A stretch of DNA of 64,000 bases. Origin: Pseudomonadota bacterium (GTDB lineage Bacteria > Pseudomonadota > Gammaproteobacteria > Steroidobacterales > Woeseiaceae). The DNA is taken from the NCBI GenBank assembly GCA_039819385.1, contig JBCBSC010000012.1, positions 14,371 through 78,370 of the forward strand, read 5' to 3'. The notes under the pieces are model-generated. The model saw only the letters and a program-made list of their open reading frames with translations. It was not told the origin of the DNA and ran no database searches. The translations under genes were made by a program, and so were the position numbers. Within the stretch, counting starts at the first letter, position 1, and each line of letters begins with the position of its first letter. This document shows positions 28,890-51,172 of this stretch, piece by piece.

Positions 28890-28942
28890 GGACGCCCTCC
28901 AGCACGGTAAAACTTCGAAAAAAGTAGCACAAAATCAAGATA

Positions 28943-28961: not shown

Positions 28962-29003
28962 ATTGTCAGGGCTAGTATGAGGTCTCAATCAGAGGGTTCA
29001 AGT

Positions 29004-29357: not shown

Positions 29358-29437
29358 GCGACCGGCGCTCGCCCGACTGTTCCTGGTGCGGCCAAACACG
29401 GTAAGCTTGCCGCCGTCGTAACGTCGTGTAGGTTGGA

Positions 29438-30376: not shown

Positions 30377-30379
30377 AGC

Positions 30380-30682: not shown

Positions 30683-30719
30683 CGATCAAGTCTTGGCGGA
30701 CAAGCTTAGGTAGGGTTTT

Positions 30720-31184
30720 ATGATTCGTGCACTCGTCGACAAGATCAGCCAGGCCGTGCAGGCCACGGACGGGCAGGAGAACGAAACGCGCGAGGATGTG
30801 CTGCGGCTCTGCACCGCCGTGCTCATGGTGGAGGTTGCGCGGGCGGATTACGATTTCGACGAATCCGAGTTCGATCTGCTGCTCGAGCTCATAAAGGTGC
30901 ACTTCGGCCTGTCCGCCGAGGACGCGACGCAGCTCGCCAACGAGGCGGCCGAGGTGGCGGAGGATTCCGTTTCCCTGCACGAATTCACCCAGCGCCTGCA
31001 TAAGCACTTGAGCGAGCGGGAGAAGGCGGAGGTCGTGTCGCTGCTGTGGCAGGTGGCCTACGCGGACGGCAGTCTCGACAAATTCGAGGATTCCATCGTT
31101 CTCAAGATCAGCGACCTGCTGTACGTCAGCCGCGGTAAAGTGATGCAGTTGAAGCACGATGCCGAGGTCGCCAAGTCGGCTTAG
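30720..31184 (+). CDS. TerB-family (tellurite-resistance-like) protein
   Basis: The VLMVEVARADYDFDESEFDLL...LLWQVAYADGSLDKFEDSIV repeat is typical of the TerB/DjlA N-terminal domain. Confidence 0.72.
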   Translation: MIRALVDKISQAVQATDGQENETREDVLRLCTAVLMVEVARADYDFDESEFDLLLELIKVHFGLSAEDATQLANEAAEVAEDSVSLHEFTQRLHKHLSEREKAEVVSLLWQVAYADGSLDKFEDSIVLKISDLLYVSRGKVMQLKHDAEVAKSA

Positions 31185-31387: not shown

Positions 31388-33004
31388 TTACACGGGGTTG
31401 CCTATCGTGCCGTTACAAATCGGCGTAAACGCCGTCAGTGAGTCGAGCATCTGAGCGTTGCCGAGCCCGTTGTTCGGGAACAGGGTGCTGAACAGACCCA
31501 CCTCGTTGTGCAGAGCCATGTAGTTGAGTATCGCCGTGTTCACGAGCAGCGGCACGTTGTTGGCGGCGGGGGTCGCCGCGCGCTGCACGGACCCGTCGGC
31601 ACTCATGTAACCGATCTGCTGATGAATGGCCTGCTCTTCGGGCGTGGCGCCTATGATGGTAGGTCGCCGCGACGGGTTGTAGACCAGGAAGAACGAGCCG
31701 GCCGTGGACGAGTTGTCCGACGACCATTCGCCTTTACCGCGGCCTTCCGCCGAGTTGTCGATCGTGCCGTTGGAAGACAGCGAGCCGTCGGAGAACACGT
31801 ACAGCATCAGCGGTACGCCGCGCACGGCCGCATACTCGAGGCACGCGCCCATGCACTGTCCGGCGCGGAAGTCTTTGACTTCGCCTTCGGCGCGGGCGCC
31901 GCCGTGGTAGTCGTAGCCGCCCATCTCGATCGTCGCCGCGCCGGCGTAACCGTTCATGATGAGCTTCATGATCGCCGCCGTCTTCTGGAATTCGCGGCCG
32001 TCGCGTCCGCCGCTGTTGAATTCCGCGGTCGTGAAGATGCCGCCGGCATCCGCGACGATCTCCGGATCTTCAGCCGGGTCGATCGGCACGCCGCCGAAGC
32101 GGTCCGCAATGTCTGCGGCCTTCAGATAGCCGCAATTGACGGCCTGTTTGATCGCGGCGTCGTTGGCAATGTTGGTGTTGACGCTGCCGACCTTGGCTTC
32201 GCTGAGGCGGTAAATCGATTCCATGACCGCCGTGGCATCGTTCTTCGACAGGATGCCGACGAGTTCGCCCGTGTCCACGAGGTTGGTCACGTCGGACGGA
32301 CGGTCGACCTTGGTCGGGCGCAGTTCGGGATCGTAGAGCATCATCGGCAGCATCGAGTTGCCGCCGGAATCCGTATTCTCGGAGCCAGCGAGCGTCAGGA
32401 TCGAACCGGCCGCGCCGGCCCGGGCAATGCCGTACATTGGATTGTGCGGATTGTTACCCGTGTCGTTGTCGGAACGTGCCGGGATGATCGCGCCGTTGAT
32501 GTTGGCGGCGGTCGTCGCCGACACCTTGCTCATGATGCCGCGGCGGAATGCGCTGTCCAGGTGGAAGCCCAGCCCCAGGTCGAAGTTGGCGTACGGTTCG
32601 CCGAGAACGGGGTCGTTCAGGCTCGGCACCATGTCGCCGGGCAGTCCCATTTTCTCGTAACCGCCCGTACTCAGAAAGTCGAGCTGGCCGCCTTCGCCGC
32701 CAACCAGCACGTTCGAGTTCGCGATATTCGCGCCGCCCGCCAGATCGAAGGCAATGAACGGTATCTTGCCGGCGCCGTTGGTCGCGATCTCGCAGGGGTT
32801 TTGCAGCTGTCCCGCAAGGTCCGGCGAGAGGGCCGCCAGCGCGTCGCGCGGCGCCCCCATCAGTCCGGCAAGGCTGACCGCGCTGGTGTACGCCGCGCCG
32901 CTCATGAAACCCTGAGCGACAAACTGGCGGCGCGTGACAGGACGCGGATGATCTCCATGCAGCTGGGGAGCATCGAAGTCCCGAGCGTTTCGTCTCTTAG
33001 CCAT
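31388..33004 (-). CDS. Tat-exported protein, distantly DUF1501 / alkaline-phosphatase-superfamily-like
   Basis: Twin-arginine motif TRRQFV (RR codons at 32927..32932) followed by an h-region. FDLAGGANIAN and GGYDYHGG...LYVFSDG resemble DUF1501 metal-site segments. Family assignment is tentative. Confidence 0.8.
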   Translation of the reverse strand: MAKRRNARDFDAPQLHGDHPRPVTRRQFVAQGFMSGAAYTSAVSLAGLMGAPRDALAALSPDLAGQLQNPCEIATNGAGKIPFIAFDLAGGANIANSNVLVGGEGGQLDFLSTGGYEKMGLPGDMVPSLNDPVLGEPYANFDLGLGFHLDSAFRRGIMSKVSATTAANINGAIIPARSDNDTGNNPHNPMYGIARAGAAGSILTLAGSENTDSGGNSMLPMMLYDPELRPTKVDRPSDVTNLVDTGELVGILSKNDATAVMESIYRLSEAKVGSVNTNIANDAAIKQAVNCGYLKAADIADRFGGVPIDPAEDPEIVADAGGIFTTAEFNSGGRDGREFQKTAAIMKLIMNGYAGAATIEMGGYDYHGGARAEGEVKDFRAGQCMGACLEYAAVRGVPLMLYVFSDGSLSSNGTIDNSAEGRGKGEWSSDNSSTAGSFFLVYNPSRRPTIIGATPEEQAIHQQIGYMSADGSVQRAATPAANNVPLLVNTAILNYMALHNEVGLFSTLFPNNGLGNAQMLDSLTAFTPICNGTIGNPV

Positions 33005-33033: not shown

Positions 33034-35565
33034 TTACTGTACGAGGGTCGCGGCGCTGCCGAGCGTGGCGGCGCAGACACCCTTGGAGATAGCTTCGGTG
33101 CTCGAACCACCCGCGATCAGGCGATCGATCAGGTTGTCCGGGCGGTTACCGTCACCGTTGGCCGATGCAAGTTCGCTGTAGACCGTCATGAACGACGGCT
33201 GGCTTGCGAGCTGCGGACCGCTGCGGCTGTTGCCGACGATGCCGGCGATCAGCGGATCGACGAACAGGTCGCGGTTGGCGCCGCCGAAGGCCGTCCCTGG
33301 CGCGGCGCCGAAGTTGAAGCCCGGGAAGTAGCTGGCGCGTGCCGTCGTATCGTTGATCAGCGCGTTGCAGTACTCGATGGCGAGCTGCGCGACGGCGACC
33401 TGATGTGACGACAGGAAGGTGTTGACGTCCTCTACCGCGGGCAGCGACTGGCGCAGCTCCTGGTAGGTCATGTCGACTGCCATGCTGTTGGGATCGACCC
33501 CCGTAACCGCCGCAAAGCTCGCGTTGATCTCATCGAAGGTGCGGAAGCCAATGTGCGACGAGGGATCGAGATCGGTCGGTGAAATCACCAGTACCGGGTC
33601 CTCTGTACGCGCATAGCTTTGGCCGGCGAGCTGATCGAAAGTCAGGAAGAACTCGTCCTCCTGCGGACCTTTCTCGAGCGGCAGCACCGCGCCCAGCACC
33701 GAGAGCTGCTGGCCGAGGTCGCCGAACAGCGTGGCATCGAGCGTCGTGTTGAGCGTGGCGTAGGTCTGACCGACGGGTGCTTCCGCGCCGTTCAGTCCGA
33801 TGCGCATGCCGTCGAGCGGAATGCCGGTCGGCGACGAGCCGTCGAGCGTCACGAAGTGCGGACGGTCGAACAGATACGCGTAAGAGTCGAACTGCTGCAC
33901 CTCGAAGAGGATGTAGGACGACTGCGGCGCGGCCTGCAGGATCTCTGAAATGTCGAACAGCAGGAAGAATTTCTCGCCCACGCCGACGTCGAAGTTCTGC
34001 GTGATCTGTTCCTGGGTCAGCGCGGAGTTGTGAACGGCGACCAGGCGAATCGTGCCTTCCCAGGGCGCATCGCCCGAAGCTTCGTTGCCGAGGACAAACG
34101 CGAAGGTGTCCTGCCAGTCGGCGATCGTGCCGCCGGCCGTCTGGTCGACGTTGCTGACCAGCTCGCCGTTGACGTAGATCCGGCGACCTTCGAGCGGATC
34201 GTAGGTGGCGACGACGTGCTGCAAGGTGGCCTGCAGTACTTCGTCGGCCGAAGGCGTCGACAGTGCCGGATCGCCGTTCAGGCCGGTTTCAGTGTGCCGC
34301 AGACGGAAGTCGTAATCGTACAGGGTTTGCTGCAGCGTGAAGTTGCGTGCTTCCGGGCCCGCCGAGTAGCTTACGATACGAGCCATTTCCTGCGTAACGT
34401 TGGCGGGGATCACCCAGGCCTCGATCGAGAACAGGCCGTTCGACTGTTGGATGAAGTCGAAGAGCTTCTTGCTGCCGGTCGTCGAACCCTGGGCCTTGCC
34501 GCCATTGAGCGTAATGCCCCAGCCGCCGAACCATTCGACTTCCGGAGACAGGTTCAGGTCCAGCGCCGGTGCAACACCCGAGGTATCCGCGGCGACGCGG
34601 ATGTCCGGGTCTTCGCTGCCGGATTTGAATTCCCACAGGGCAATCTGATCGTTTTCGTAGCGGTTGCCGCCCGATGCGACCGTGCCGTCGATGAGCCTGA
34701 GCGCCTTACTGACGACGAGGCTGGGATCGACCGTTGTGGGTACGATGCCGCTCGCGAACTGCTCGATCGCGGCCTGCATTGTGTTTGCGGAGTTCTCGCA
34801 GCTACCGCCCCAGCAGTTGTGGAATTCGTTGCGCAGGCGGATGACCAGGCGCGAAGCGGCCGGGTCGTCGAGATCGATACGTGGCTGGGCGGCCTCGTAG
34901 GCACTGGCCACGTCCGGGTCGGCCATGTACGGCTGGCGCGGATCTTCCGATTCGGAGCTGTGACACTCGGAGCAGTAGGGCACGAGGATCGGCTGATGGA
35001 TCAGCGTTGCGAACGCCGAAGAATCGTCCGGGAAGTTCTTGCTCGCGCCCGGGTCTTTGGGCTCCGGCGCCGTCAGCGTAATCGTGCGGCCGCCGCCGGC
35101 AATGTCGCCGGCCCAGTTCTGTATCCAGCGCGTCATGAGCGACGTGCAAACGGACAGGTCGGGCGACCAGCAGTTGTGGCCTCCGCCGACCTTGGCAACG
35201 ACGCGAGATTGCGCCGGCTGGGTCAGGTCAACGACCGTAAGCGCTTCGTCATACGCCAGGTTGACGTCGTCGAAGCGGACGAACAGCGGCGGCTGTGCCG
35301 TCGTTTCGTTATGGCAGTCGCCACAGCTTCCCTGCTCGCGTACGTCGGTCCAGAACGTGTTCTGGAATTTCTGCACGTCGCCGTCGCGGGCGCCCGGTCC
35401 GGAATAAATCGGTCCGCCGCCACCGCCGCCGGTCGGGGGCGCCGGGTTGTCGACCGTACCCGCTCCGCCGCCACAGGCTGCAAGAACGAAGCTTGCAAAC
35501 GCGGCCAGCGAGGCGCCTCTCAGACGCAGACTTCCCTGCAAGGCATTTTCCATTGCGTTTCTCAT
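33034..35565 (-). CDS. Large lipoprotein with two CxxCH haem motifs, two HNCW motifs and a LamG-like central domain
   Basis: Lipobox FVLAAC followed by a Gly/Pro linker. CGDCH at 35311..35325 and CSECH at 34960..34974. LamG-like segment (FSIEAWVIPAN...HVVATYDPLEGRRIYVNGELV). Strong RBS GGGAGCAGGA. Confidence 0.85.
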   Translation of the reverse strand: MRNAMENALQGSLRLRGASLAAFASFVLAACGGGAGTVDNPAPPTGGGGGGPIYSGPGARDGDVQKFQNTFWTDVREQGSCGDCHNETTAQPPLFVRFDDVNLAYDEALTVVDLTQPAQSRVVAKVGGGHNCWSPDLSVCTSLMTRWIQNWAGDIAGGGRTITLTAPEPKDPGASKNFPDDSSAFATLIHQPILVPYCSECHSSESEDPRQPYMADPDVASAYEAAQPRIDLDDPAASRLVIRLRNEFHNCWGGSCENSANTMQAAIEQFASGIVPTTVDPSLVVSKALRLIDGTVASGGNRYENDQIALWEFKSGSEDPDIRVAADTSGVAPALDLNLSPEVEWFGGWGITLNGGKAQGSTTGSKKLFDFIQQSNGLFSIEAWVIPANVTQEMARIVSYSAGPEARNFTLQQTLYDYDFRLRHTETGLNGDPALSTPSADEVLQATLQHVVATYDPLEGRRIYVNGELVSNVDQTAGGTIADWQDTFAFVLGNEASGDAPWEGTIRLVAVHNSALTQEQITQNFDVGVGEKFFLLFDISEILQAAPQSSYILFEVQQFDSYAYLFDRPHFVTLDGSSPTGIPLDGMRIGLNGAEAPVGQTYATLNTTLDATLFGDLGQQLSVLGAVLPLEKGPQEDEFFLTFDQLAGQSYARTEDPVLVISPTDLDPSSHIGFRTFDEINASFAAVTGVDPNSMAVDMTYQELRQSLPAVEDVNTFLSSHQVAVAQLAIEYCNALINDTTARASYFPGFNFGAAPGTAFGGANRDLFVDPLIAGIVGNSRSGPQLASQPSFMTVYSELASANGDGNRPDNLIDRLIAGGSSTEAISKGVCAATLGSAATLVQ

Positions 35566-35576: not shown

Positions 35577-36785
35577 CTAGTCGCCCATGCAGTGAACGGC
35601 CGTATCAGCAAAAACCTGCTTCATGCTGTAGCCCGTCGTGCGGAAGGTGTTGATGATCTGGTCGACAGCCGTGCGGTCGGTCTGGTCCTCGGGGTCGCGC
35701 AGACAAACGGCTTTGAAGACCTTCCTGACCTGGCAGGAAGCGAATGCGTGCGAATTGCCGAGCTCTTCACCAAGCGTCTTGGCGCCCTGGCCCTGCCCCG
35801 GAAGACCCGGGTCGAAGCCGAGATACGAGTTCTGGCCAATCCGCCAGTAGTTCTCCCAGCTATCGTCCGGCGTGCGGAAACCCTGCGGGAAGTTCAGATC
35901 GTTGTTGAAGTACTTCGGCTGCACGACACCCTGGGTGTACTGGATCGAGCCTGCGCCTTCGTCGTAGTTGTAATAGGCAAACGCCTGCGCCATCGGGTCC
36001 ATGCCCGTGTGGCAGCCCACGCAGTTGTTCAGGAACAGGCGGCTGTCACCGCCCGGACTGCGGGAGACGTCCTGGCGGATGCGATCCGGCGGCAGCTTGG
36101 GATCGTGCATTTGTTCGAGGTCGTTGCACATGTGATTCAGCAGCGTGAAGCGGAACATCGCGCGGTTGGTGCCCGCGACAAAAAAGGCTTCGGCCGCAGC
36201 GCGCGAAGTCATCACGCCGGCCGTGGCCGTGGAGGGCAGGCCGTTGACGGAGGACTGCGTCGTGCTCACAAGGTCGGTGTACAGATTGACGTTGTCGGCT
36301 TCGAGCTGTTCGTAGTGATTGTTGTTGTTGGCCGCCGGTGCCGCTGCAACAACCCCTGGGCTGCCGACGTACTGAAGATCGGCTGAGAGCAGCGTGTTGA
36401 ACGGCACGTCGTCGCGGACCATACCAATGACCGTGGCAATGTAGTCGTTAAGCGGTACGAACACCGACTGATCGCGGTTGGTCCACGGTGCCGCGAAGTT
36501 CTTTAACGTCACATTGTAGAAGTTGACGTTTTCCATCGCCTTATTGGCCGCAGCGGCCGGATCGCCATCGATAGCAATGAAATCCTCCATCTGCTGCAGA
36601 ATCGTCTCGGAGGGCGGCACGCCCGCGAGCCTGTCGTGGATCCGTTTGGCCTGCTCGCGCGGTCCCGCGACGGCGGGAGCCGCTATTGCAACAGCCAGTA
36701 CCGTGGCGATCAGCGATCGCGTAACGGTCGTTTTGGCTGCCGCTATGCCGGCCGCATTTGTTTTCATCCATGTCATGTTTTTCAT
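35577..36785 (-). CDS. Secreted mono-haem protein, DUF1588-like (planctomycete cytochrome-domain type)
   Basis: Signal peptide ending AVAG. CVGCH-TGMDPMAQAF at 36009..36023 resembles the DUF1588 CxxCH-x2-DP-x-G signature. Confidence 0.82.
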   Translation of the reverse strand: MKNMTWMKTNAAGIAAAKTTVTRSLIATVLAVAIAAPAVAGPREQAKRIHDRLAGVPPSETILQQMEDFIAIDGDPAAAANKAMENVNFYNVTLKNFAAPWTNRDQSVFVPLNDYIATVIGMVRDDVPFNTLLSADLQYVGSPGVVAAAPAANNNNHYEQLEADNVNLYTDLVSTTQSSVNGLPSTATAGVMTSRAAAEAFFVAGTNRAMFRFTLLNHMCNDLEQMHDPKLPPDRIRQDVSRSPGGDSRLFLNNCVGCHTGMDPMAQAFAYYNYDEGAGSIQYTQGVVQPKYFNNDLNFPQGFRTPDDSWENYWRIGQNSYLGFDPGLPGQGQGAKTLGEELGNSHAFASCQVRKVFKAVCLRDPEDQTDRTAVDQIINTFRTTGYSMKQVFADTAVHCMGD

Positions 36786-37152
36786 AACGATCCTGCTCAC
36801 GAACTGGTTCGTCCCCAACGATTCGCCGGCCGCTCAAGCGGCTGGCCCGTTTGACGCAAGTTGTAAGGAGTGATTCAGAAATCCCGCGAGTCCACTCGGT
36901 TGCTGGTCTCGTTTCCATCCGGGCTACTGCACATTCCCGACAACTAAATCGTCGTCTGCCGAATTGCGTTTGTCGTCGACACTTGTCATCGACATTGCCG
37001 TTCGGCGTGACCGCATGCTTAATCTCTTGAAGCAGCGCTCAAAGACTGTGGACATCCTTGTGTCTCTTGGTTGCCGGTTTCTTCGCCAACGGCCTCCTGG
37101 CCTTAAGAAGATTCCAGCTGCATGCATCCTGCCAATTCGAGTTCCGGATTGC

Positions 37153-37168: not shown

Positions 37169-38018
37169 GTCCTTGTTCGACGAGCGTTATGCGGTCCTTG
37201 CGCGGCCAGACAGAACGCTGCGGTCCCTCTGGATAAAGCAAGTGCTGTGCCAGTCTCCCGAGCGCGGCCTGAATAAGCCAAAATTTCATTTAATATCAAC
37301 AACTTGATGCTGGATGTCCGATGTGGCAAAAAGTCGCCATATGTCAAGTTGCTGTCGGCGCTTTCGTACATCGCCAGCGAGCACCGGTCGTAAGCTACTG
37401 ATTATTAAAGGAGCTGCAACTGTCTCCGAAGGGAGACAGAGTGACCATCCGGATTGGCACCTGTAGTAACAGCGGATTCCCCGCCGAACTTAAACCAGCT
37501 TATGAAGCGGCGTTCGGGGGAACGCAGAAAAGTGCGCGTCGCCTGCGCGAAATACACACAGCTCGAAACGTCCGCTCACGGAAAACGCGGTGCGTTCTTT
37601 CACTGTAGTGACGCGACCGCCGGGTATCGCGGCCGCACGAGCTAAGGCCCCTGCAGCACGAAGCAAAGCACAAATCGTCACTTTCTGACCCGGTCTGTCG
37701 CGGATTTTCGACATTACATCGCCCATTAACAGTCTTTTATACTCGCGCGCAACCGGAGCACGAATACGGCCGTGCAGCCAGATTTCGATTCCGGTAAACG
37801 CGAACGCGGTGGCGCTTGTGTGACGCCGTACCGATCTGCGGTTTGTGATCGCGTTAACGGTACGGCGCTCCTCTCGCGTCCACTATTGCACTTAACAAAA
37901 GGTAGGACTGTGCGCACCCGACACCCGAACCCCGAGAGAACGGAGACTCCCGAGGTAAGACATGGTCGCGCTGCGTCTTCGACATGAACAGACCGCCGTT
38001 TGATCCGAGGTATCAGTT

Positions 38019-40751
38019 ATGAACAGAGCATCGCGACAGAGACAGGAAGGATCCTTCGTCCGCGCCCGGCGTTTCGCCGGTGTGCTCTCCGTGTCCGTCC
38101 TGCTGGCGGCCTGTGACGGCGCCAATCAGGGCGTGCAGATCGGTGACGGCCAGACACCCGATCCCGTGGTCATCGATTTTCCGATCGCGTACGTTCGCGC
38201 ACCGTTGCCGCTCGACGACGACGGAGTGTTCGAGCAGCAGGATCTTCGCGAACAGATTACCTTTGACGTAGGCGGCCAGCTTTTTGTCCGCGATCGCGCA
38301 TCCCCCAGTGCGGAACCGCTAAACGTTACGGAAAGCGTAATCGGCGACATGGGCGCCGTGCGCGATGTCGAAATCGCCTACGACGGCAGCGCCGTTTTGT
38401 TTGCCATGCGCGGCCCGTTCGATCCCAATCTCGACGAGGAAGACCAGCCGACCTGGAACCTCTGGGAGTACACGTTCGAGGATGCCGCGCTACGGCGGAT
38501 AATTCCGTCCGACCTGACTGCCGAAATCGGTCACGACATCATGCCGAAGTATCTGCCCGACGGCCGGATCGTGTTCTCGTCGACGCGGCAGGTGCGTTCG
38601 CGGGCGATTCTGCTCGACGAAGGCAAGAGCGGTTTCGGCGCCATGGACGAGGATCGCAACGAAGAGGCGTTCAACCTGCACGTGATCGATCGCGACGGGT
38701 CCGGTCTGGAACAGATCTCCTTCAACCAGAGCCACGATCTCGATCCCTCGATCCTCGCCAACGGCCAGATTATCTACAGCCGCTGGGATCACGCGCCCGG
38801 CAACGACGTCGTCAATTTGTACCGCATGAACCCCGACGGCTCGGACAACGAGCTGCTGTACGGTAACGAAAGCCACGCGACCGGCACGAACGGCGAGATC
38901 ATTCAGTTTACCCAGCCGCGTCAACTCGAGGACGGGCGGATCATGTCGCTCGTACGGCCGTTTACCAACACGGAAGGCGGCGGCGATATCTTTGTCATCG
39001 ATACGCCTCAGTACGTCGAGATTACCCAGCCGCTCAAGGACAATATTGGCGTGCTGACCGGCCCAGGTCAGGAACCCGGTACGACGCTGGACGTGTCGAC
39101 GCTGGAAGGCGTGCCTTCCGAGGGCGGCCGCTACAGCTCGGTGTATCCGATTCAGGACGGTACGGGGCGCCTGCTGGTGAGCTGGAGTCAGTGCCGCGTG
39201 CAGGACGTCGTCGATCCGGCCATCGATCCGCCACCGCCGGTGAATATTTATCCCTGCACCGACGAACGGCTTGCGGACGCTGTACTCTACGAGCCGGCGC
39301 AGCCGTTGTACGGGCTCTGGATCTACGATCCGCGCGACAACACGCAGCTTCCCGTTGTGCCCGGCGAAGAAGGCTTCATGTTCACCGAAGTCGTGTCCGC
39401 CGACCCGCGCCCCGCGCCGCCCGGAATACCCGACCGCCTCAACGATTTCCCGTTCGACCCCTTGCTGCGCGAGGCGGGCGAGGCGGTACTCAACATACGC
39501 AACGTTTACGATTTCAACGGCGGCCTGGTCGCCAACGTCGAGGCGCTGCGCGATCCGGCCCAGACGCCCGCGGCGGACCGTCCCGCGCGCTTCCTGCGCA
39601 TCGAGAAACCCGTATCGCTGCCGGACGAAGACCTGCTGGATTTCGACGATACCGCGTTTGGCGTATCGCAGCAGAACGGCATGCGGGAAACGGTCGGCTA
39701 CGCCATGATCGAGCCTGACGGTTCTGTCGTCACCAAGGTGCCCGCGAACGTGGCGCTCGCGATCAGCGTTCTCGACGGTAACGGCAAGCGCATCACTCAG
39801 CGGCACAACAACTGGATTTCCCTGACGCCCGGGCAGGAACTCAAATGCGCGGGCTGCCACATTGCGAATCAGGGTGTTTCGCACGGTCGCCGCGACGCGT
39901 TCGAGTCGGCGTACGCCGGCGCTCAGACCACGGGCGGCAGCTTCGCCAACACGGACCCCAAGTGGTTTATCGGCGAGGTCGGCGAAACGATGGCGGAGGT
40001 TCGCGCGCGCGTAAGCTGCACGGCGGAAGACTGTTCCGCCATCGAGCCCACTATGGCCATCGACTTCGAGGACGTCTGGTCGGCGGATCCGCTAATCAGA
40101 GCCGCGAACGAGTCTTTCGACTACAATTACGACGACGTGCAGGAGCTGCCGACCGGCTCGCCGACCAATGCGGTCTGCCCGACCGTCACGGGACTGTCGG
40201 TTCGCGACTGGCAGTCGCAGTGCCGTAACATCATCAACTACGAGACGGTGATTCATCCCATGTGGAGTCAGGAGCGGCTGGTCTTCGACGACATGGGTAA
40301 TCCCGTGCTGGACGGCAACGGCGTTCAGCTCAGCAACAATTGCCAGAACTGCCATACGCCGCTCGACGTCGTGAACGCCGTTGTGCGCGTGCCGGCGGGG
40401 CAGCTCGATCTGGCCGATGGCCCGTCCCCCGACGAACCGATGCACTTCAACGCTTATCGCGAGCTGCTGGCCGGCGATAATTTTCAGGAAGTCGTGAACG
40501 GCGCTCTCGTGGACGCGCAGCAGGTCGTCGGTCAGGACGCTGACGGCAACGACATACTCGACGTGATACCGATTGCGGCGCCCGCCAGTCCGGCCGGCGC
40601 GCTGGCATCCGCCGATTTCTTCAGTCGTTTTGAGGATCCGAACGATCCTCATTACGAAATCTTGACGGCTACCGAGCGAGCATTAATCGCCGAATGGTTG
40701 GATTTAGGTGCCCAGTACTACAACAATCCTTACGACGCGCCGCTCAACTGA
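38019..40751 (+). CDS. Lipoprotein with a TolB/PD40-like beta-propeller and two CxxCH haem motifs (possibly HzsA-related)
   Basis: Lipobox VLLAAC. PD40-like blades (YDGSAVLFAMRG, LPDGRIVFSSTR, NGQIIYSRWDH). CAGCH at 39846..39860 and CQNCH at 40341..40355. Confidence 0.85.
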   Translation: MNRASRQRQEGSFVRARRFAGVLSVSVLLAACDGANQGVQIGDGQTPDPVVIDFPIAYVRAPLPLDDDGVFEQQDLREQITFDVGGQLFVRDRASPSAEPLNVTESVIGDMGAVRDVEIAYDGSAVLFAMRGPFDPNLDEEDQPTWNLWEYTFEDAALRRIIPSDLTAEIGHDIMPKYLPDGRIVFSSTRQVRSRAILLDEGKSGFGAMDEDRNEEAFNLHVIDRDGSGLEQISFNQSHDLDPSILANGQIIYSRWDHAPGNDVVNLYRMNPDGSDNELLYGNESHATGTNGEIIQFTQPRQLEDGRIMSLVRPFTNTEGGGDIFVIDTPQYVEITQPLKDNIGVLTGPGQEPGTTLDVSTLEGVPSEGGRYSSVYPIQDGTGRLLVSWSQCRVQDVVDPAIDPPPPVNIYPCTDERLADAVLYEPAQPLYGLWIYDPRDNTQLPVVPGEEGFMFTEVVSADPRPAPPGIPDRLNDFPFDPLLREAGEAVLNIRNVYDFNGGLVANVEALRDPAQTPAADRPARFLRIEKPVSLPDEDLLDFDDTAFGVSQQNGMRETVGYAMIEPDGSVVTKVPANVALAISVLDGNGKRITQRHNNWISLTPGQELKCAGCHIANQGVSHGRRDAFESAYAGAQTTGGSFANTDPKWFIGEVGETMAEVRARVSCTAEDCSAIEPTMAIDFEDVWSADPLIRAANESFDYNYDDVQELPTGSPTNAVCPTVTGLSVRDWQSQCRNIINYETVIHPMWSQERLVFDDMGNPVLDGNGVQLSNNCQNCHTPLDVVNAVVRVPAGQLDLADGPSPDEPMHFNAYRELLAGDNFQEVVNGALVDAQQVVGQDADGNDILDVIPIAAPASPAGALASADFFSRFEDPNDPHYEILTATERALIAEWLDLGAQYYNNPYDAPLN

Positions 40752-41514
40752 CAACCAGGGTTTTGTATCCCGGTGGTGGTTGTGCCTGATCGCTGTTGCA
40801 CTTGTACAGGCATTCTGGCCGGGACAAGCATTTGCCGCCAAGGTATATCGAACCGTGGCGGTTGCGGACCCGTATCTCGAGATGCATACGGGTCCCGGCC
40901 GCGGCTACCCTATTTTCCACGTCGTGGACCGCGGTGAAACCGTTCAGATCATTCGCCGCAAGACGGACTGGTTCAAGGTGCTCGCACCGGACGGTCGCGA
41001 GGGCTGGGTCGCAAAAGCGCAGATGGAGCTGACGCTCGAGGACGACGGCTCGGTGCTCGATTTCGAAGTTGTCGACAAAGACGACTTTACCAACGCCAAA
41101 TGGGAAATGGGCGTGCTGGCCGGCGATTTCGGCGGCGCGAACATCGTGTCGCTGTACGGCGGCTACTCGCTCACCCCGAATGTTTCGGTCGAGGCATGGG
41201 GTTCACAGATTTTGGGAAATTTTTCGAACGGTTGGATGGGCAGTGTTAACGTCGTCCATGAGGCCTTTCCGGATTGGCGGTTTTCACCCTTTTTCACCCT
41301 GGGCGCCGGAGTCATACGCACCGAGCCCAAGTCGACCATCGTTCAGGGTGAGGATCGCAACGATCAGATTGGCCATGTCGGAGCAGGTTTCCGCGTCTAC
41401 GCAGCGCGGCGATTCCTGATCCGGGCCGAATACAAGAGCTACGTGGTGTTCACGAGCCGGGACGACAACGAGGAAGTGGAAGAATGGAAAGTCGGTTTCG
41501 CATTCTTTTTCTGA
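40708..41514 (+). CDS. SH3-domain protein fused to an outer-membrane beta-barrel
   Basis: Signal peptide, SH3_3-like segment (GETVQIIRRKTDWFKVLAPDGREGWV), then amphipathic beta strands ending in KVGFAFFF (terminal Phe). GTG 40708 overlaps the upstream gene; TTG 40780 is an alternative start. Confidence 0.72.
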   Translation: MPSTTTILTTRRSTDNQGFVSRWWLCLIAVALVQAFWPGQAFAAKVYRTVAVADPYLEMHTGPGRGYPIFHVVDRGETVQIIRRKTDWFKVLAPDGREGWVAKAQMELTLEDDGSVLDFEVVDKDDFTNAKWEMGVLAGDFGGANIVSLYGGYSLTPNVSVEAWGSQILGNFSNGWMGSVNVVHEAFPDWRFSPFFTLGAGVIRTEPKSTIVQGEDRNDQIGHVGAGFRVYAARRFLIRAEYKSYVVFTSRDDNEEVEEWKVGFAFFF

Positions 41515-42164
41515 TAGTCGCGTTTACGCTGCTGTCCGGATGTGCTGCGACCAAGAACCTGTTTGGTTTTGGCCGCAACGAGGCGCCGCCACCCAGCGCG
41601 GAGCCTCCCGGTCAGGTTGTCGATCCGGAGGTTGAGCGCCGTGAGATCAAGGAGGCGAAAATCGACTCCGAGAACTTCGAGATCGGTGCGTTCGCCGGCA
41701 TTTTTGCGATCGAGGATTTTGGCTCCAACGTCGTCTACGGGGCGCGCATTGCCTATCACGTAACGGAGGGCTTCTTCGTCGAGGGCACCGTCGGCACGAC
41801 CGAGGGGGACCTGACCAGTTTCGAGATCCTGTCGGGCGATGCGAGGCTGCTGACGGACGACGAACGCACGCTAACCTATTACAACCTGAATCTCGGCTAC
41901 AACATATTTCCCGGCGAAGTCTTCCTGGGCGAGGGACGGGCGTTCAATACGAACCTGTATCTGATCGCCGGCCTGGGCTCTACCCGGTTTGCCGGCGACG
42001 ATCGCTTTACCGTCAACTTCGGCGCCGGGTACCGCTTCCTGCTATCCGACACCATTGCGATTCATATCGATTTTCGCGATCACCTGTTCGACATCGATCT
42101 CCTCGGCGAGGAGAAAACCGTACACAACCTGGAAGGCCACCTTGGCCTTACCGTGTTTTTCTGA
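41484..42164 (+). CDS. Outer-membrane beta-barrel lipoprotein
   Basis: Lipobox TLLSGC. Alternating beta-strand pattern with the C-terminal signature GHLGLTVFF. Confidence 0.75.
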   Translation: MESRFRILFLIVAFTLLSGCAATKNLFGFGRNEAPPPSAEPPGQVVDPEVERREIKEAKIDSENFEIGAFAGIFAIEDFGSNVVYGARIAYHVTEGFFVEGTVGTTEGDLTSFEILSGDARLLTDDERTLTYYNLNLGYNIFPGEVFLGEGRAFNTNLYLIAGLGSTRFAGDDRFTVNFGAGYRFLLSDTIAIHIDFRDHLFDIDLLGEEKTVHNLEGHLGLTVFF

Positions 42165-42179
42165 CAGAGGTTTTGGGCC

Positions 42180-42416
42180 ATGCGCAACACGACCGTATGC
42201 AAACTGCTCTCCGTTCTGCTGGTAGCCGGTGCCGTATCCGGCTGCAGCAACATTGAGCCCTGGGTGAAACCGTACGAACGCGACCGTCTCGCGGACCCGA
42301 TCATGGCGCTCGACGGCGATCCCGTTTCCAGTTCTTACATGCAGCACGTTTACGAGTCGCGCGAGGGCGCCCGTGGCGGCGAAGGCGCAGCCGGAGGCGG
42401 CTGCGGCTGTAACTGA
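42180..42416 (+). CDS. DUF4266 small lipoprotein
   Basis: Lipobox AVSGC, PWVKPYERDRLADPIM, and the family-typical C-terminus GGGCGCN. Confidence 0.8.
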   Translation: MRNTTVCKLLSVLLVAGAVSGCSNIEPWVKPYERDRLADPIMALDGDPVSSSYMQHVYESREGARGGEGAAGGGCGCN

Positions 42417-42448
42417 AGCGATCGGTCCAGGCACGGAGTAAGACAAGC

Positions 42449-43591
42449 ATGTTATTGAAGCGCAAGCTCCAGTTTCTTACGCTGATCGGCACCTTGCTGG
42501 CGGGGAACGCGTTCGCCAGCGTTCTGCCCGACGACCGGTCCGATGTGCTGTATCACCGCTATGAGGGCGGTGGCGTTCTGATCGACGGGCCTTCGGTTCT
42601 GGTGCGAAAGAAAGTCGGTAAGAACGTGTCGGTGGTGGGCAACTACTATATCGACTACGTAAGCTCGGCATCCATCGACGTCGTCACGACAGCCAGTCCT
42701 TACAACGAGGAGCGCACGCAGTGGTCGCTGGGCGTCGATTATCTGCGCGGCAACACCACCCTTAGAGCAAACTACGTGAGTTCGGTCGAGTCCGACTACG
42801 ACGCATCGACCGCGGCGTTCTCCGTCAGTCAGGATATGTTCGGCCAGCTCACAACGCTGACGCTGAGTTACGGTTACGGCGACGATGTCGTAGGCCGCTC
42901 CGACGATCCGACCTTCGAGCGCTTCGTGAAGCGCCAGCAGTACAGTCTGGGCATCACCCAGATTCTGACCAAGAACATGATCGCCGCATTGAACGTGCAA
43001 ACGACGACCGAGGAAGGGTATCTCAACAACCCTTATCGTCAGGTACGCTTTCTGGACCCGACGGCCGATATCGGCTACAGCTACGAGGGTGAGCTGTATC
43101 CCAATACGCGCACGGCGAATGCCGTCGGTATCCGGGCACGCTACTTTCTGCCGTATCGCGCCGCGCTGGAGGCGGAATACCGCTTTTTCGTGGACACCTG
43201 GGACATCGAGTCCAACACAATTTCGCTGACCTACATCCAGCCCTGGCGTAACTTCACCTTCAAGGTGAAAGGGCGCTACCACGATCAGACCGGGGCACAT
43301 TTTTACCGCGATCTGTTCTCGCGCTCCGAGGCGACGAACTTCCGCGGCCGCGACAAGGAGCTCAGTCCGCTGCAAAGCTATGTCGTGACGCTGAAAGGCA
43401 GCTACAAGTTCATCGACGAGAACAAAGGCTGGGGCATGTTCAAGAAGGCCACCGTGACCGCGTCGATCGATATGATGCGCTTCGAGTACGAAGACTTCCG
43501 GGATCTGCGCTTCGCGGCGCCGGTCGGCCAGGAGCCGCTATATCAGCTGGACGCCAACGTCGTACAGGTGTTCGTCTCTTTCTGGTATTAG
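42449..43591 (+). CDS. DUF3570 outer-membrane beta-barrel protein
   Basis: Signal peptide, LYHRYEGGGVLIDGPS start typical of DUF3570, beta-strand periodicity, aromatic C-terminus FVSFWY. It follows DUF4266, as this pair usually does. Confidence 0.8.
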   Translation: MLLKRKLQFLTLIGTLLAGNAFASVLPDDRSDVLYHRYEGGGVLIDGPSVLVRKKVGKNVSVVGNYYIDYVSSASIDVVTTASPYNEERTQWSLGVDYLRGNTTLRANYVSSVESDYDASTAAFSVSQDMFGQLTTLTLSYGYGDDVVGRSDDPTFERFVKRQQYSLGITQILTKNMIAALNVQTTTEEGYLNNPYRQVRFLDPTADIGYSYEGELYPNTRTANAVGIRARYFLPYRAALEAEYRFFVDTWDIESNTISLTYIQPWRNFTFKVKGRYHDQTGAHFYRDLFSRSEATNFRGRDKELSPLQSYVVTLKGSYKFIDENKGWGMFKKATVTASIDMMRFEYEDFRDLRFAAPVGQEPLYQLDANVVQVFVSFWY

Positions 43592-43807: not shown

Positions 43808-44368
43808 ATGTTGTACGTGTTCCTCGCGCTCGGCGCAGTTTTTCTCAGTGCCCTCGTTGCGCTCTACAATCGACTCGTAAGCAGCCGTAACCGTGTGCGC
43901 ACGGCCTGGAGCGACATCGACGTGCAGCTGCAGCGCAGGCACGATCTCATTCCGCAGCTGGTCAAAGCCGTCGATCGGTACGCGCAGTACGAGAAGGCAA
44001 CGCTCGAAGCCGTGACCGAGCTGCGGCAGCAGGCCATGCGCGCAACCCGCATTGGCGAGCGTGGCAAGACGGAGGAGGCCCTCGGCGAGAGCCTCGGCCG
44101 GCTAATCGCGCTTGCGGAGAGTTATCCGGATCTCAAGGCGAACGAAAACTTCCTCGATCTGCAGCGGCAGCTGGTCGAAACCGAGAACTATCTGCAGTTC
44201 GCCCGCCGCTACTACAACGGCTCGGTACGCGACTACAACACGATGATCGAGGCGGTGCCGAGCAATTTCGTCGCCCTCGCTTTCGGTTTCAAGCCACGCG
44301 AGTTCTTTCAGAAGCGCTCGGACGACGTTGCCAACGTACCGCTGGTCAAACTCGGACATATCGAATGA
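43808..44368 (+). CDS. lemA: LemA-family protein
   Basis: N-terminal TM helix. NRLV..RN.V..AWSDIDVQLQRRHDLIPQLV and YPDLKANENFLDLQRQL are classic LemA strings. Confidence 0.9.
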   Translation: MLYVFLALGAVFLSALVALYNRLVSSRNRVRTAWSDIDVQLQRRHDLIPQLVKAVDRYAQYEKATLEAVTELRQQAMRATRIGERGKTEEALGESLGRLIALAESYPDLKANENFLDLQRQLVETENYLQFARRYYNGSVRDYNTMIEAVPSNFVALAFGFKPREFFQKRSDDVANVPLVKLGHIE

Positions 44369-46062
44369 AGCGCCTGGCGTTGCTGTTGTTCCTGCTGCCC
44401 GCGTTGAGCGCGGCGGACGAGCGAATCCTCGAGTTTCACAGCGACATTCTGGTCCGCTCGGACGGCTGGATCGAAGTACGCGAGACCATTCGGGTTCGGG
44501 CCGAGGGACGGCAAATTCGCCGCGGGATCTACCGCGACTTCCCCACCCGCTACAAGGACAAGCGAGGGCTCGATCAGGTCGTCGACTACCGGCCGCGCTC
44601 CGTCCTGAGAAATACCGCTCGGGAGGATTTCCACTCGGTCGATCTCGACAACGGCGTGCGGACCTACTTCGGCAACAAGGACCGATTCCTCGAGCAGGGC
44701 GAGCATACTTATCTGTTTAGCTACAGGGCGAATCGCATGCTCGGGTTTTTCGCCGAGCACGACGAGCTGTACTGGAACGTGACCGGATTCGGCTGGGCGT
44801 TTCCGATCGACAAAGCGAGTGCGCGGGTGAGTTTCGAGTTCGATGTCCCGGCGGATCGGGTGGAGACGACAGCCTACACGGGGCGAATGTACGATCAGGG
44901 CGGGGACTACAGGTCGCGCGTTGCAAGCGATGGGTCCGCCTACTTCGACGCAACCGCGCCGCTGTCGCCCGTAAACGGGCTCACTGTCGTCGTAAGCTGG
45001 CCCAAGGGCTTCGTGGAGGAACCGGGCGATGCCGAGCGACTCGGCTGGGTGCTGCGCGACAACCGCAACCTGCTGGTCGTGCTCGCCGGGCTGTTGGCGC
45101 TGCTCGTGTACTACATCCCGGTCTGGCGACATTTCGGCAAGGATCCGGAAGAGGGTGTCCTGATCACCCGCTACGAGCCCCCCGAAGCTTATTCGCCCGC
45201 CTCGCTGCGCTACGTACGGCAGATGTACTACGACAACAAGGTCATGACCTCGGCGGTATTGAGCCTGGCGGTCAAAGGCTATTTGCGCATCGTCGAGGAG
45301 GACGGCGAACACACCCTGGAGCGCCTGACGCCCGGCTCCGCCGCGCCGCCGCTGGCGGCCGGCGAGCGCGAGTTGTACGACGCGCTGTTTGCGCTGAGCA
45401 AGCGGGTGCAGCTGGATAACGTAAACCACCGGACGCTGGGCAAGGCGATGCGCGCGCACAAGGCTTCGCTCAAGGCCGACTACAGCAGGAAGTACTTCAA
45501 AACCAACGGCCTTCTGAGTCTGCCGGCGCTTGCGATCGTCGTTGCGACCAGCGTTGCGGCGCTGGGTATGGGGGGCAAACCGCCGGCGCTCGTGCTGCTC
45601 GGTGTTGCGCTAAACGTCGTCGTGATGCTGTTCTTCGGCTACATCATGAAACGTCCCACGTTGCGCGGGCGTCGCGTTCTCGACGAAATGCTCGGCTTCA
45701 AGGACTATCTGGAGATTGCGGAAAAAGACGAACTGAACCTCCGCAACCCGCCTGCGAAAACGCCGGCCTTGTTCGAGGCGTATCTGCCTTTCGCGCTGGC
45801 AATGGGCGTGGATCAGGAGTGGTCGGAGAAATTTGCCGGCATCCTCGCATCGATCCGCGGCGAGGGCGGGAGCAGCTATCAGCCCGGCTGGTACAGCGGC
45901 AGCTTCAATACGAGCAAGCTCGTATCATCGACCAACACGCTCTCGAGCGGCCTGAATTCCGCGATCAGTTCTTCGGTAACGCCGCCGGGCTCGTCGTCAG
46001 GCAGCGGCGGCGGCGGCTTCTCCGGCGGCGGGGGAGGTGGCGGCGGCGGCGGCGGCTGGTAG
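44365..46062 (+). CDS. DUF2207 membrane protein
   Basis: ATGA overlap with lemA. Signal peptide, extracellular domain, TM helices, Gly-rich tail ...SGGGGGGGGGGGW. Confidence 0.85.
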   Translation: MKRLALLLFLLPALSAADERILEFHSDILVRSDGWIEVRETIRVRAEGRQIRRGIYRDFPTRYKDKRGLDQVVDYRPRSVLRNTAREDFHSVDLDNGVRTYFGNKDRFLEQGEHTYLFSYRANRMLGFFAEHDELYWNVTGFGWAFPIDKASARVSFEFDVPADRVETTAYTGRMYDQGGDYRSRVASDGSAYFDATAPLSPVNGLTVVVSWPKGFVEEPGDAERLGWVLRDNRNLLVVLAGLLALLVYYIPVWRHFGKDPEEGVLITRYEPPEAYSPASLRYVRQMYYDNKVMTSAVLSLAVKGYLRIVEEDGEHTLERLTPGSAAPPLAAGERELYDALFALSKRVQLDNVNHRTLGKAMRAHKASLKADYSRKYFKTNGLLSLPALAIVVATSVAALGMGGKPPALVLLGVALNVVVMLFFGYIMKRPTLRGRRVLDEMLGFKDYLEIAEKDELNLRNPPAKTPALFEAYLPFALAMGVDQEWSEKFAGILASIRGEGGSSYQPGWYSGSFNTSKLVSSTNTLSSGLNSAISSSVTPPGSSSGSGGGGFSGGGGGGGGGGGW

Positions 46063-46086
46063 ACTTCGAACGCTTCCCGCAGCGAC

Positions 46087-46110
46087 TTCTGGAACTATTT
46101 CTGGAACTAT
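46087..46110. repeat. Two tandem copies of TTCTGGAACTAT
   Basis: Read directly between the DUF2207 stop and the rhomboid start. Confidence 0.8.
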
Positions 46111-46153
46111 TGCGGTCTTTCCGCAGCCCTTTGTGCTCACTCAGGATACTCGT

Positions 46154-46828
46154 TTGAATCAACCCGCTTATCAGCATCGGGCGCGCCGGCCGAGCGCAAT
46201 TCCCGACACGATCCTCGCCCTGCTTGTTGTCAACGGGCTCGTGTTCGCGGCTCAGATGATGACGATCTATCCAGCACTGGGCTTGAGCTGGGTCGATCTG
46301 CGTTTTGCGCTTTGGCCGCCGGTCGAAGGCACGCTTCGCGGCTGGCCGCCGGCTATACCGGAGCCTGGCTTCGGCGTCTGGCAGCTCGTGAGCTACGGCT
46401 TCCTGCACGGCAGTCTGCCGCACATCGCGTTCAACATGTTTGCGCTATGGATGTTCGGCCGGGACATCGAGGCGCTGATGGGGCCGCGGCGCTTTCTGAC
46501 CTACTTTCTGGTCTGCGTCGCGGGGGCTGGCGTCGTACAGCTGCTGGTCGCCAACCTGCAGGGCGGTTTCTACCCGACCGTGGGCGCCTCGGGCGGCGTG
46601 TTCGGGATACTGCTGGCTTACGGTATGGCGTTCCCGAATCGCACGATCATGATGATCTTTCCGCCGATCCCGATGAAGGCCAAGTACTTTGTCATCCTGA
46701 TCGGGCTCTTCGAGCTCTACATCGGATTCAGCGGACGTTCTCCCGGGGTGGCCAATTTTGCGCACCTCGGCGGCATGCTGTTCGGTTTTGCGATGCTGCA
46801 GTACTGGAAAGGCCGCCGTGGCAGGTAG
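46154..46828 (+). CDS. Rhomboid-family intramembrane serine protease (GlpG-like core)
   Basis: HGSLPHIAFNM, GASGGVFGILLAYG and AHLGGMLFG motifs. TTG 46154 is chosen as start because the ORF-track start at 46037 would overlap the DUF2207 gene. Confidence 0.85.
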   Translation: MNQPAYQHRARRPSAIPDTILALLVVNGLVFAAQMMTIYPALGLSWVDLRFALWPPVEGTLRGWPPAIPEPGFGVWQLVSYGFLHGSLPHIAFNMFALWMFGRDIEALMGPRRFLTYFLVCVAGAGVVQLLVANLQGGFYPTVGASGGVFGILLAYGMAFPNRTIMMIFPPIPMKAKYFVILIGLFELYIGFSGRSPGVANFAHLGGMLFGFAMLQYWKGRRGR

Positions 46829-51144: not shown

Positions 51145-51172
51145 ACTGCTTCGAGGCGGGTTTCCAAAGAAC

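Follow-up and report, generated by a model that had tools for sequence, protein, structure and literature searches.

Gene content and conservation of the locus

The 64,000-nucleotide (nt) stretch analysed here (the window; contig JBCBSC010000012.1, positions 14,371 to 78,370) derives from a gammaproteobacterium of the Woeseiaceae. It contains five co-directional genes encoding an HzsA-like di-haem lipoprotein, an outer-membrane protein (OMP) with an SH3 domain, an OMP lipoprotein, a DUF4266 lipoprotein and a DUF3570 protein, separated by a 1.2-kb intergenic region from a divergent operon of three genes encoding two further haem proteins and a protein exported by twin-arginine translocation (Tat) (Table 1). 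All five open reading frames (ORFs) described in an earlier note, which was made from the sequence alone, were present as claimed, and they are regarded as real genes because, for the 910-aa protein as for the 380-aa protein, over 4,000 homologues were found (E ≤ 0.001, among 8,000 candidates scored). ORF families were assigned by profile searches against Pfam and NCBIfam, structural neighbours by Foldseek on AlphaFold2 (AF2) models, and matches to Protein Data Bank (PDB) sequences by phmmer. The families foreseen in the note (HZS_alpha, SH3_3, OMP_b-brl, DUF4266, DUF3570) were all matched, and only PD40, in the 910-aa protein, fell just below its Pfam cut-off. The tally of eight exported proteins and five haem motifs over both operons was also correct: every protein has a Sec, lipoprotein or Tat signal, and the five-gene and divergent operons contribute two and three CxxCH motifs, respectively. 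Read from its sequence, the locus is a set of exported proteins with five predicted c-haem sites, two putative flavin mononucleotide (FMN)-type sites, a CxC lipoprotein, three outer-membrane-type barrels and a Tat protein.

Table 1 Genes, motifs and candidate regulatory elements of the locus, in window coordinates
Feature	Position	Strand	Basis or remark
538-aa Tat-exported protein (TRRQF), third gene of divergent operon	31388..33004	-	twin-arginine signal; family uncharacterised
843-aa lipoprotein (LAAC) with two CxxCH (residues 81, 198) and Laminin_G_3 (concanavalin-like) domain	33034..35565	-	Pfam 1.5e-21
413-aa secreted mono-haem protein, CVGCH at residue 266	35577..36818	-	distant PSCyt3/PSD2 (DUF1588/DUF1585) relation
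σ54-type promoter TGGCACAGCACTTGC (-24/-12), facing divergent operon	37238..37252	-	motif conservation
Two TGT-N12-ACA inverted repeats (37353-37370 and 37420-37439)	37353..37439	.	candidate enhancer-binding-protein sites
TAAGctaCTGATT block between the inverted repeats	37391-37403	.	IHF-like candidate site
19-nt element TGTGATCGCGTTAACGGTA, ~160 nt upstream of 910-aa gene	37844..37862	+	candidate operator/promoter element of five-gene operon
910-aa HzsA-like di-haem lipoprotein: N-terminal TolB-like β-propeller, middle haem domain, C-terminal haem domain	38019..40751	+	HZS_alpha match, 5c2v_A similarity
Haem motif 1, CAGCH, residues 610-614	39846..39860	+	aligns with haem αI motif CSGCH of Kuenenia HZS-α
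Haem motif 2, CQNCH, residues 775-779	40341..40355	+	probable distal ligand H878
268-aa (or shorter) protein: periplasmic SH3 domain and small OmpA-like β-barrel, end FAFFF	40708..41514	+	SH3_3, OMP_b-brl, TIGR04565
226-aa lipoprotein (LLSGC), small OMP β-barrel, end LTVFF	41484..42164	+	TIGR04565 OMP_myx_plus
78-aa DUF4266 lipoprotein (AVSGC)	42180..42416	+	DUF4266 87.5 bits, 1e-24
CGC motif of DUF4266, inside C-terminal GGGCGCN	42402-42410	+	sequence
380-aa DUF3570 protein, predicted 16-stranded outer-membrane β-barrel	42449..43591	+	DUF3570 115.7 bits, 3e-33; AF2
Two ApbE-type flavinylation-like motifs, D69-YVSSAS75 and D77-VVTTAS83	42653..42697	+	sequence; barrel strand 3-4 connection

Related loci were collected in two samples run independently. 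The genome sample, from a scan of species-representative genomes, comprised the 80 best of more than 580 relatives (47–85% identity to the 910-aa protein of the window), and the metagenome sample comprised 80 loci from a scan seeded with a distant family member (34–39% identity to that seed). The 160 loci were tabulated with hidden Markov models (HMMs) built from the window proteins, and the counts given below cover only contigs with enough flank. The genome sample takes in Woeseiaceae, Steroidobacteraceae, Nevskiaceae and Lentisalinibacter sediminis; further carriers are Aliiglaciecola (Alteromonadales), which like Lentisalinibacter is in culture, and a metagenome-assembled genome (MAG) of the Dongiaceae, and close relatives of the window DUF3570 protein bear Woeseiaceae labels. 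Two contigs with a gammaproteobacterial-type cluster, L040 (from a MAG labelled Bifidobacteriaceae) and L059 (labelled Rhodospirillaceae), probably reflect binning or labelling errors.

The link between the five-gene module and the divergent operon proposed in the earlier note held in every related locus with enough flank. The upstream trio (413-, 843- and 538-aa proteins) was present in 59/59 genome and 34/34 metagenome loci, and the downstream SH3-OMP, DUF4266 and DUF3570 genes in 64/64 and 49/49, respectively; the OMP lipoprotein was found in 63 of the 64 genome loci and 48 of the 49 metagenome loci. Chance adjacency of the two operons is ruled out by this 100% co-occurrence. Wherever the contig reached, the gene order was also the same: the genes for the 413-, 843- and 538-aa proteins, in this order outwards, are transcribed away from those for the HzsA-like protein, the SH3-OMP, the OMP lipoprotein, in some loci TlpA, then DUF4266 and DUF3570. 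Since the other flanking genes vary, the eight genes are the conserved unit. Genes for LemA, a DUF2207 protein and a rhomboid protease (43808–46828, plus strand) adjoin the cluster only in the window and in Woeseiaceae-type loci; as every more distant locus has lost them, they are neighbours, not parts of the system. On the other side, a CARME-like methyltransferase gene (26528–27898) abuts the Tat-protein gene in many relatives of the genome set. In the window, a LysR regulator and an SbtA-type bicarbonate transporter lie between these two genes (26528–31184), and two more ORFs of this region correspond in place and length to the P-II and TerB genes of a 91%-identical relative, which carries a peptidase S9 gene at the same junction. 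No sign of a mobile or phage element was seen in any locus examined.

In more distant loci, the 160–170-aa gene between the OMP lipoprotein and DUF4266 encodes a secreted WCxPC thioredoxin, TlpA (Redoxin, 1.5e-27), which was present in 43/49 metagenome and 19/64 genome loci. The gene for ApbE (Pfam 1e-81) immediately follows DUF3570 in some loci and lies at the distal end of the divergent operon in others, in many cases accompanied by a second TlpA; it was found within ±10 kb in 21/28 metagenome and 12/53 genome loci. Neither ApbE nor TlpA was detected within ±10 kb of any Woeseiaceae-type locus. The earlier view that haem proteins had taken the place of ApbE and TlpA is thus right for the Woeseiaceae-type form insofar as both are absent in cis, but it does not extend to the wider family, in which the same haem genes sit together with TlpA and ApbE at the frequencies just given. 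Versions outside the Woeseiaceae carry a further conserved four-gene block beside DUF3570 or ApbE (e.g. L116, 15906–21873; also L113, L123, L081, L077 and L086), which encodes a secreted protein of ~190 aa, a ~650-aa protein, a ~1,000-aa tetratricopeptide repeat (TPR) protein and a ~200-aa TPR lipoprotein. The TPR partners match YbgF/CpoB and BamD models, with YbgF- and BamD-like repeats in the ~1,000-aa protein; no such four-gene block was present in the window. Because most other lineages add ApbE, TlpA and this block, the window holds a reduced form of a previously undescribed haem-plus-flavinylation supercluster of ~14 genes.

Haem proteins, small barrels and the flavinylation-like sites of DUF3570

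The architecture reminiscent of HzsA that the earlier note had suggested for the 910-aa protein was borne out by a match to HZS_alpha (PF18582; 50 bits at a gathering cut-off of 26.6) and by full-length similarity to the α subunit of Kuenenia hydrazine synthase (HZS-α); its lipobox (LLAAC) and two CxxCH motifs lie exactly where the note had placed them. The sole real match among PDB sequences was HZS-α (5c2v_A), in four collinear segments that fall in the propeller, the middle haem domain and the very C-terminal end. The same chain was the best Foldseek match of the low-confidence AF2 model (E 4e-18, 689 columns, ~17% identity), with TolB propellers ranking next, far behind; the model is poor (predicted local distance difference test, pLDDT, of 51.5; shallow alignment) and was used only to confirm HZS-α as top fold match. 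The family is large, with 3,467 clusters at 50% identity at E ≤ 0.001 and 505 at E ≤ 1e-30, the best 150 of which are mostly full length; the Aliiglaciecola member (a cluster 43% identical) is named 'HzsA-related protein' in RefSeq.

Residue equivalences were derived from the phmmer alignment to 5c2v_A, where chain numbering plus 27 gives precursor numbering. H614 aligns with αHis587 of haem αI, Gln618 sits at the ungapped position of αTyr591, and H878 aligns with αHis772 of haem αII. Across 34 family members (34–63% identity), C32, C610/C613/H614, H622, C775/C778/H779 and a Cys pair were invariant and H878 nearly so, and Tyr was not among the conserved columns at the Tyr591 site; a C-terminal EWxDxGAQ tail is common to the 910-aa protein and HZS-α. 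In HZS-α, His772 is the distal ligand of the bis-His haem αII (PMC12758564). The alignment therefore depicts a protein with one haem αI-like site of ordinary CxxCH type and one haem αII-like site that probably retains the distal His. 

Two family assignments were rejected. The score against the hydrazine_alpha equivalog (NCBIfam NF052339) was 57.2 bits at a cut-off of 800, from a local match only, and no βγ-subunit homologue (CCP_MauG or comparable) was found among the eight cluster proteins or in the conserved gene order of the 160 loci; together with the unconserved Tyr591 position, this rules out a hydrazine synthase. Nor is the protein a known TolB-type scaffold, as it reached 19 bits at a cut-off of 343 with the TolB equivalog (TIGR02800) and no tolQRA or pal gene is adjacent. 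The lipobox +2 residue is Asp (CDG, C32-D33, nt 38112–38117), likewise in nine genome-set loci; CGG or CSG prevails in the remainder of the family. An Asp at +2 of a lipoprotein signals inner-membrane retention in E. coli. It was not accepted here as proof of inner-membrane anchoring, since the residue is lineage-specific and no such sorting rule has been established in this group.

The three barrel-like proteins end in aromatic residues as described earlier (FAFFF, LTVFF and VSFWY). In the 268-aa protein, SH3_3 scored 43 bits (4e-11) and OMP_b-brl 24.5 bits (3.5e-5), under its cut-off of 28.7, and the C-terminal half matched TIGR04565 at 9e-9. The 226-aa lipoprotein reached 163 bits with TIGR04565 (OMP_myx_plus) at a cut-off of 60, and 32.9 bits with OMP_b-brl. 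The overlap of 31 nt between these two genes (41484–41514) recurs in the related loci compared, whereas the 44-nt overlap claimed at 40708–40751 hinges on the choice of start codon: it needs GTG 40708, the only other in-frame start is TTG 40780, and in the 91%-identical relative the homologue is annotated with a later start. The DUF4266 lipopeptide has the length (78 aa) and the GGGCGCN end given in the earlier note, and this C-terminus was found in 131 of 135 related loci.

The DUF3570 protein has a signal peptide and the C-terminus FWY, and its AF2 model, built from a 90-sequence alignment (pLDDT 82.8, predicted template modelling score 0.76), contains 16 long antiparallel strands. The Foldseek PDB matches listed for this model are outer-membrane barrels, some orthologues also match Porin_4, and the protein models as a 16-stranded outer-membrane barrel. 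In the model, connections 1-2, 3-4, 5-6 and so forth total 95 residues versus 28 in the alternate set. In OMPs of standard topology, the N- and C-termini are periplasmic and the long loops face outwards. Because the strand 3-4 connection, with both flavinylation-like motifs, belongs to the long set, the motif-bearing loop would under this topology be extracellular-side or folded into the lumen.

The full motif recognised by ApbE is D-x-x-[S/T]-G-A-[S/T], and a Gly-to-Ala exchange halved flavinylation in one tested protein without abolishing modification (PMC12052999). DYVSSAS and DVVTTAS fit this motif at each position but Gly. D69, S73, A74, S75, D77, A82 and S83 are invariant in the 90 aligned sequences, and the motifs are identical in ApbE-linked and ApbE-less loci; across loci, site 1 reads SSAS (89), SAAS (16), TSAS (8) or SGAS (7). 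For Chlorobium, an earlier survey showed by experiment that a DUF3570 protein is flavinylated by ApbE at two [S/T]GA[S/T] motifs, and recovered it mostly in the insoluble fraction (PMC8238504). As the motifs are the same with or without ApbE in cis, we infer that the flavin sites of the window protein may still be used, with ApbE supplied in trans. A comparator from a tblastn search of DUF3570 against plasmids, which gave only two matches, both from Hymenobacter, has DYYSSAS at the aligned position in an ApbE-linked locus, although its ApbE is frameshifted. This thioredoxin/ApbE/DUF4266/DUF3570 locus lies on a Hymenobacter volaticus plasmid (NZ_CP095067.1; L085, 3987–5350); its ApbE frame is split (3987–4754 and 4661–5083) and its DUF4266 does not end in GGGCGCN, which suggests frameshifts or decay of the system.

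In the divergent operon, the haem ligands are also kept. Orthologues of the 843-aa lipoprotein have invariant C31, C81/C84/H85 and C198/C201/H202, each CxxCH being followed by a conserved HNCW motif, and C266/C269/H270 are invariant in orthologues of the 413-aa protein. Among 17 of the latter, weak matches to PSD2 (16/17) and PSCyt3 (13/17) were obtained, all under the Pfam cut-offs. R25 and R26 of the 538-aa Tat protein are invariant in its orthologues; this protein matched nothing in Pfam, NCBIfam or PDB, also when a profile of 17 sequences was used, and a Pfam search of 17 orthologues was also empty. Profile searches with the three divergent-operon proteins against PDB sequences gave nothing meaningful.

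Candidate regulatory elements and other features of the window

The 1.2-kb intergenic region is mostly unconserved, even in comparison with the 91%-identical relative, and contains conserved islands. One of these is a σ54-type promoter motif (TGGCAC-N5-TTGC, -24/-12) facing the divergent operon, which has a single match in the 64-kb window versus 0.17 expected by chance. In 53 Woeseiaceae-type loci it recurs with unchanged strand and relative position; in the TlpA/ApbE-type loci it is absent and the intergenic regions are short. The two inverted repeats and the TAAGctaCTGATT block lie 100–190 nt upstream of this promoter and are at least 70% conserved in 26 aligned intergenic regions, whereas the surrounding DNA is unconserved. 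Enhancer-binding proteins usually bind at this distance upstream of σ54 promoters. The repeats are candidate enhancer-binding-protein sites and the block a candidate IHF-like site. The element TGTGATCGCGTTAACGGTA, nearer to the 910-aa gene, shows at least 75–80% column conservation over 26 loci and is unique in the window, with 0 matches expected by chance.

The earlier statement that the locus has no regulator is correct in that none is encoded in cis among the window ORFs scanned, but the divergent operon has a conserved candidate σ54 promoter, with inverted repeats upstream of it. No gene for a σ54 activator was detected in the scan of window ORFs, of which ~20 smaller ones lay outside the Pfam search. 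A search of the 1.2-kb intergenic region with Rfam was empty even at E ≤ 1, and simple scans for σ70 promoters and terminators performed no better than on shuffled sequence.

Outside the locus, a tRNA gene with anticodon CAT (Ile2/Met type, GGGCCTGTAGCTCAGTTGG…, encoded CCA) was observed at 62273–62583 on the minus strand. Its anticodon loop is split by a full-length group I intron (Rfam RF00028, 69 bits, 62321–62558), and the gene was missed by ARAGORN. The same arrangement of a group I intron is found in Azoarcus tRNA-Ile. An 83-nt tRNA-Ala(GGC) called by ARAGORN at 51562–51644 (plus strand) lies inside ORF 51086–51961 and is probably a false positive.

Interpretation and comparison with known systems

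An outer-membrane-anchored redox machine, as envisaged in the earlier note, is plausible. More specifically, we put at about even the chances that a fixed set of eight genes, of which the five make up one arm, encodes an extracytoplasmic haem–flavin redox system with its anchor in the outer membrane. In such a system, an ApbE from another part of the genome would flavinylate the window DUF3570, and the FMNs would sit either in the barrel lumen or on the outer side, where the long loops are. Electrons would pass between these barrel-bound FMNs and the periplasmic c-haems of the HzsA-like, LamG di-haem and PSCyt3/PSD2-like mono-haem proteins, and the CxC of DUF4266 may share in electron transfer. 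The Tat protein, the open haem of the HzsA-like protein or both could act on a substrate at or beyond the outer membrane. As electron source, a thiol route via DsbD or CcdA is possible in the TlpA-containing forms; for the window form, the periplasmic cytochrome pool appears more likely. An enhancer-binding protein whose gene lies outside the cluster would activate the haem/Tat operon via its σ54 promoter.

Several observations weigh against this system. There is no inner-membrane electron-input module in or beside the cluster, and no substrate or phenotype is known for any cluster member. ApbE, TlpA and DsbD were all absent from the 64-kb window when its ORFs in all six frames were scanned with our own HMMs (E ≤ 1e-3), and Ser or Thr stands in place of the canonical motif Gly in the window DUF3570. 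The topology of the FMN loop comes from one AF2 model, in which residues 78–83 have a pLDDT below 50, and the model of the 910-aa protein is poor throughout. Finally, the Asp at +2 of this lipoprotein would mean inner-membrane retention if the E. coli rule applied to this lineage.

An alternative close to this reading is that the Woeseiaceae-type form lost flavinylation together with ApbE and TlpA, so that DUF3570 is only a porin or docking barrel for haem lipoproteins and the haems act alone. The lack of both genes in the window and within ±10 kb of Woeseiaceae-type loci is in line with such a loss, as are the DUF3570 motifs without the canonical Gly. Relaxed selection, however, should have degraded these motifs, whereas their residues are invariant over 90 sequences and identical to those of ApbE-linked loci, and the CGC of DUF4266 is retained as well; we therefore consider the loss unlikely. 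A lower probability is assigned to thiol-based envelope repair or maturation, in which TlpA would pass electrons via the DUF4266 CxC to targets, with the haem proteins as clients or sensors and the barrel as scaffold. Most cluster versions have one or two TlpA, the CxC is nearly invariant, and DsbD is frequent in published DUF3570 clusters (PMC8238504). Yet the window form, without TlpA in cis, retains every haem and FMN site, and five invariant haem sites and a dedicated ApbE favour electron transfer over simple disulfide exchange, which makes a thiol system rather improbable.

Hydrazine-synthase-like nitrogen chemistry (on hydroxylamine or NO, or forming N–N bonds), with the cluster as a nitrogen-oxide enzyme, would account for the homology to HZS-α over the full length, in which the haem αI motif and the αII distal His are included. 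Promoters of the σ54 type, such as the candidate at the divergent operon, often control nitrogen-regulated genes. This chemistry is nevertheless highly improbable in view of the hydrazine_alpha score (57 bits vs 800), the unconserved Tyr591 ligand position and the lack of a βγ homologue (a CCP/MauG-like di-haem domain plus propeller) in the cluster; published non-anammox homologues are likewise without key residues (PMC12758564), and the carriers are ordinary aerobic or facultative Proteobacteria, e.g. Aliiglaciecola. The least credible explanation is a Tol-Pal-like structural module for the envelope or for outer-membrane assembly, built from the TolB-like propeller, the SH3 domain, OmpA-like barrels and YbgF/BamD-like TPR proteins, in which redox cofactors would be incidental. 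It would fit TolB as the next Foldseek matches after HZS-α and the YbgF/CpoB- and BamD-matching TPR partners of sister loci, but the TolB equivalog score is 19 bits vs 343, the haem ligands of the 910-aa family are invariant, ApbE is co-located, and an inner-membrane TolQRA-like partner is missing.

The eight-gene haem–flavin redox system could also be extended to a trans-outer-membrane electron conduit, in which a 16-stranded barrel with covalent FMN (outer loop or lumen; installed by ApbE in the periplasm) would be wired to c-haems via the HzsA-like lipoprotein. We give this extension a small chance. If it were true, ordinary aerobic or facultative Proteobacteria would need no decahaem Mtr-type cytochromes to exchange electrons with substrates outside the cell, and the large orphan HZS-α-like family would gain its first functional context. 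None of the component families is new, and DUF4266/DUF3570 has already been recognised as a flavinylation-associated module. The novelty, as judged from the sampled loci, lies in the apparently invariant association of this pair with a haem/Tat operon and a haem lipoprotein of the HzsA-like type, and in an ApbE/TlpA-less form in Woeseiaceae with candidate σ54 control; the predicted barrel nature of DUF3570 and the modelled loop position of its flavin sites are also new. DUF3570/DUF4266 clusters have so far been 'flavinylation-associated, function uncertain', and non-anammox HZS-α homologues unexplained relatives; both families are joined here in one system that is strictly conserved in the 160 sampled loci, where the flank suffices. 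Woeseiaceae are among the most abundant marine-sediment bacteria, and a conserved, putatively σ54-controlled outer-membrane redox module in them may matter for sediment redox cycling.

Literature searches, including HzsA-related terms, yielded no paper on this gene context, and the DUF4266/DUF3570 pair was not found in this context in any characterised system. The nearest published relatives are the flavinylation-associated clusters of ApbE, a thioredoxin-like protein, DUF4266 and DUF3570 (Méheust et al. 2021, eLife; PMC8238504). They too have DUF4266 with a C-terminal CxC beside DUF3570 and two ApbE-type motifs near the N-terminal end of DUF3570, and the sister lineages of the window cluster hold ApbE and TlpA in the canonical positions. 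The clusters of the survey name DsbD, and occasionally VIT1, as partners. In the system described here, by contrast, the invariant core consists of the eight haem/OMP/Tat genes, with ApbE and TlpA dispensable, the motif Gly is usually Ser, Thr or Ala, and no ApbE or thioredoxin-like gene is present in the 64-kb window. No mention of haem proteins, HZS_alpha, a barrel or outer-membrane location of DUF3570, small OMPs or a Tat/LamG/PSD2-like operon was found in the passages and with the terms searched in that article, and its supplements in text form have no HZS_alpha, PF18582 or Woeseia entries.

HZS-α (PDB 5C2V chain A) shares with the 910-aa protein the succession of propeller, middle haem domain and C-terminal haem domain, the aligned haem αI CxxCH and the equivalence of His772 and H878. 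At haem αI of HZS-α, Tyr591 is the proximal ligand, and His587 and Cys303 bind Zn; the 910-aa protein has Gln618 at the Tyr591 position and gave no evidence of a Zn site. It further differs from HZS-α in being lipid-anchored, in its low identity (~17%) and in having no βγ partner. Published clades I–IV of HZS-α homologues were chosen for co-location with βγ-like genes, and His772 is missing from those clade I homologues in which the haem αII site persists (Hägglund et al. 2025, PMC12758564). Unlike these, the 910-aa family is α-only and keeps the His772 equivalent. An α-only lineage with the distal His of haem αII has not yet been weighed in the debate on the origin of hydrazine synthase.

Haem proteins of the planctomycete PSCyt/PSD type pair with Tat-exported DUF1501/DUF1552 proteins. 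The divergent operon is similar in that the weak PSCyt3/PSD2 matches of the 413-aa protein surround its haem motif and C-terminus, and a haem lipoprotein and then a Tat protein follow; it differs in that the architecture is split over two proteins, a LamG domain is present and the Tat protein belongs to no Pfam family. From MtrCAB the locus is set apart by a barrel of 16 instead of 26 strands, by one or two haems per protein instead of ten and by the lack of any sequence relationship, and MtrCAB has no counterpart of the putative covalent FMN sites on the barrel. What the locus has in common with MtrCAB and other porin–cytochrome conduits is an outer-membrane barrel encoded together with c-type cytochromes, both lipid-anchored and periplasmic, all of them extracytoplasmic.

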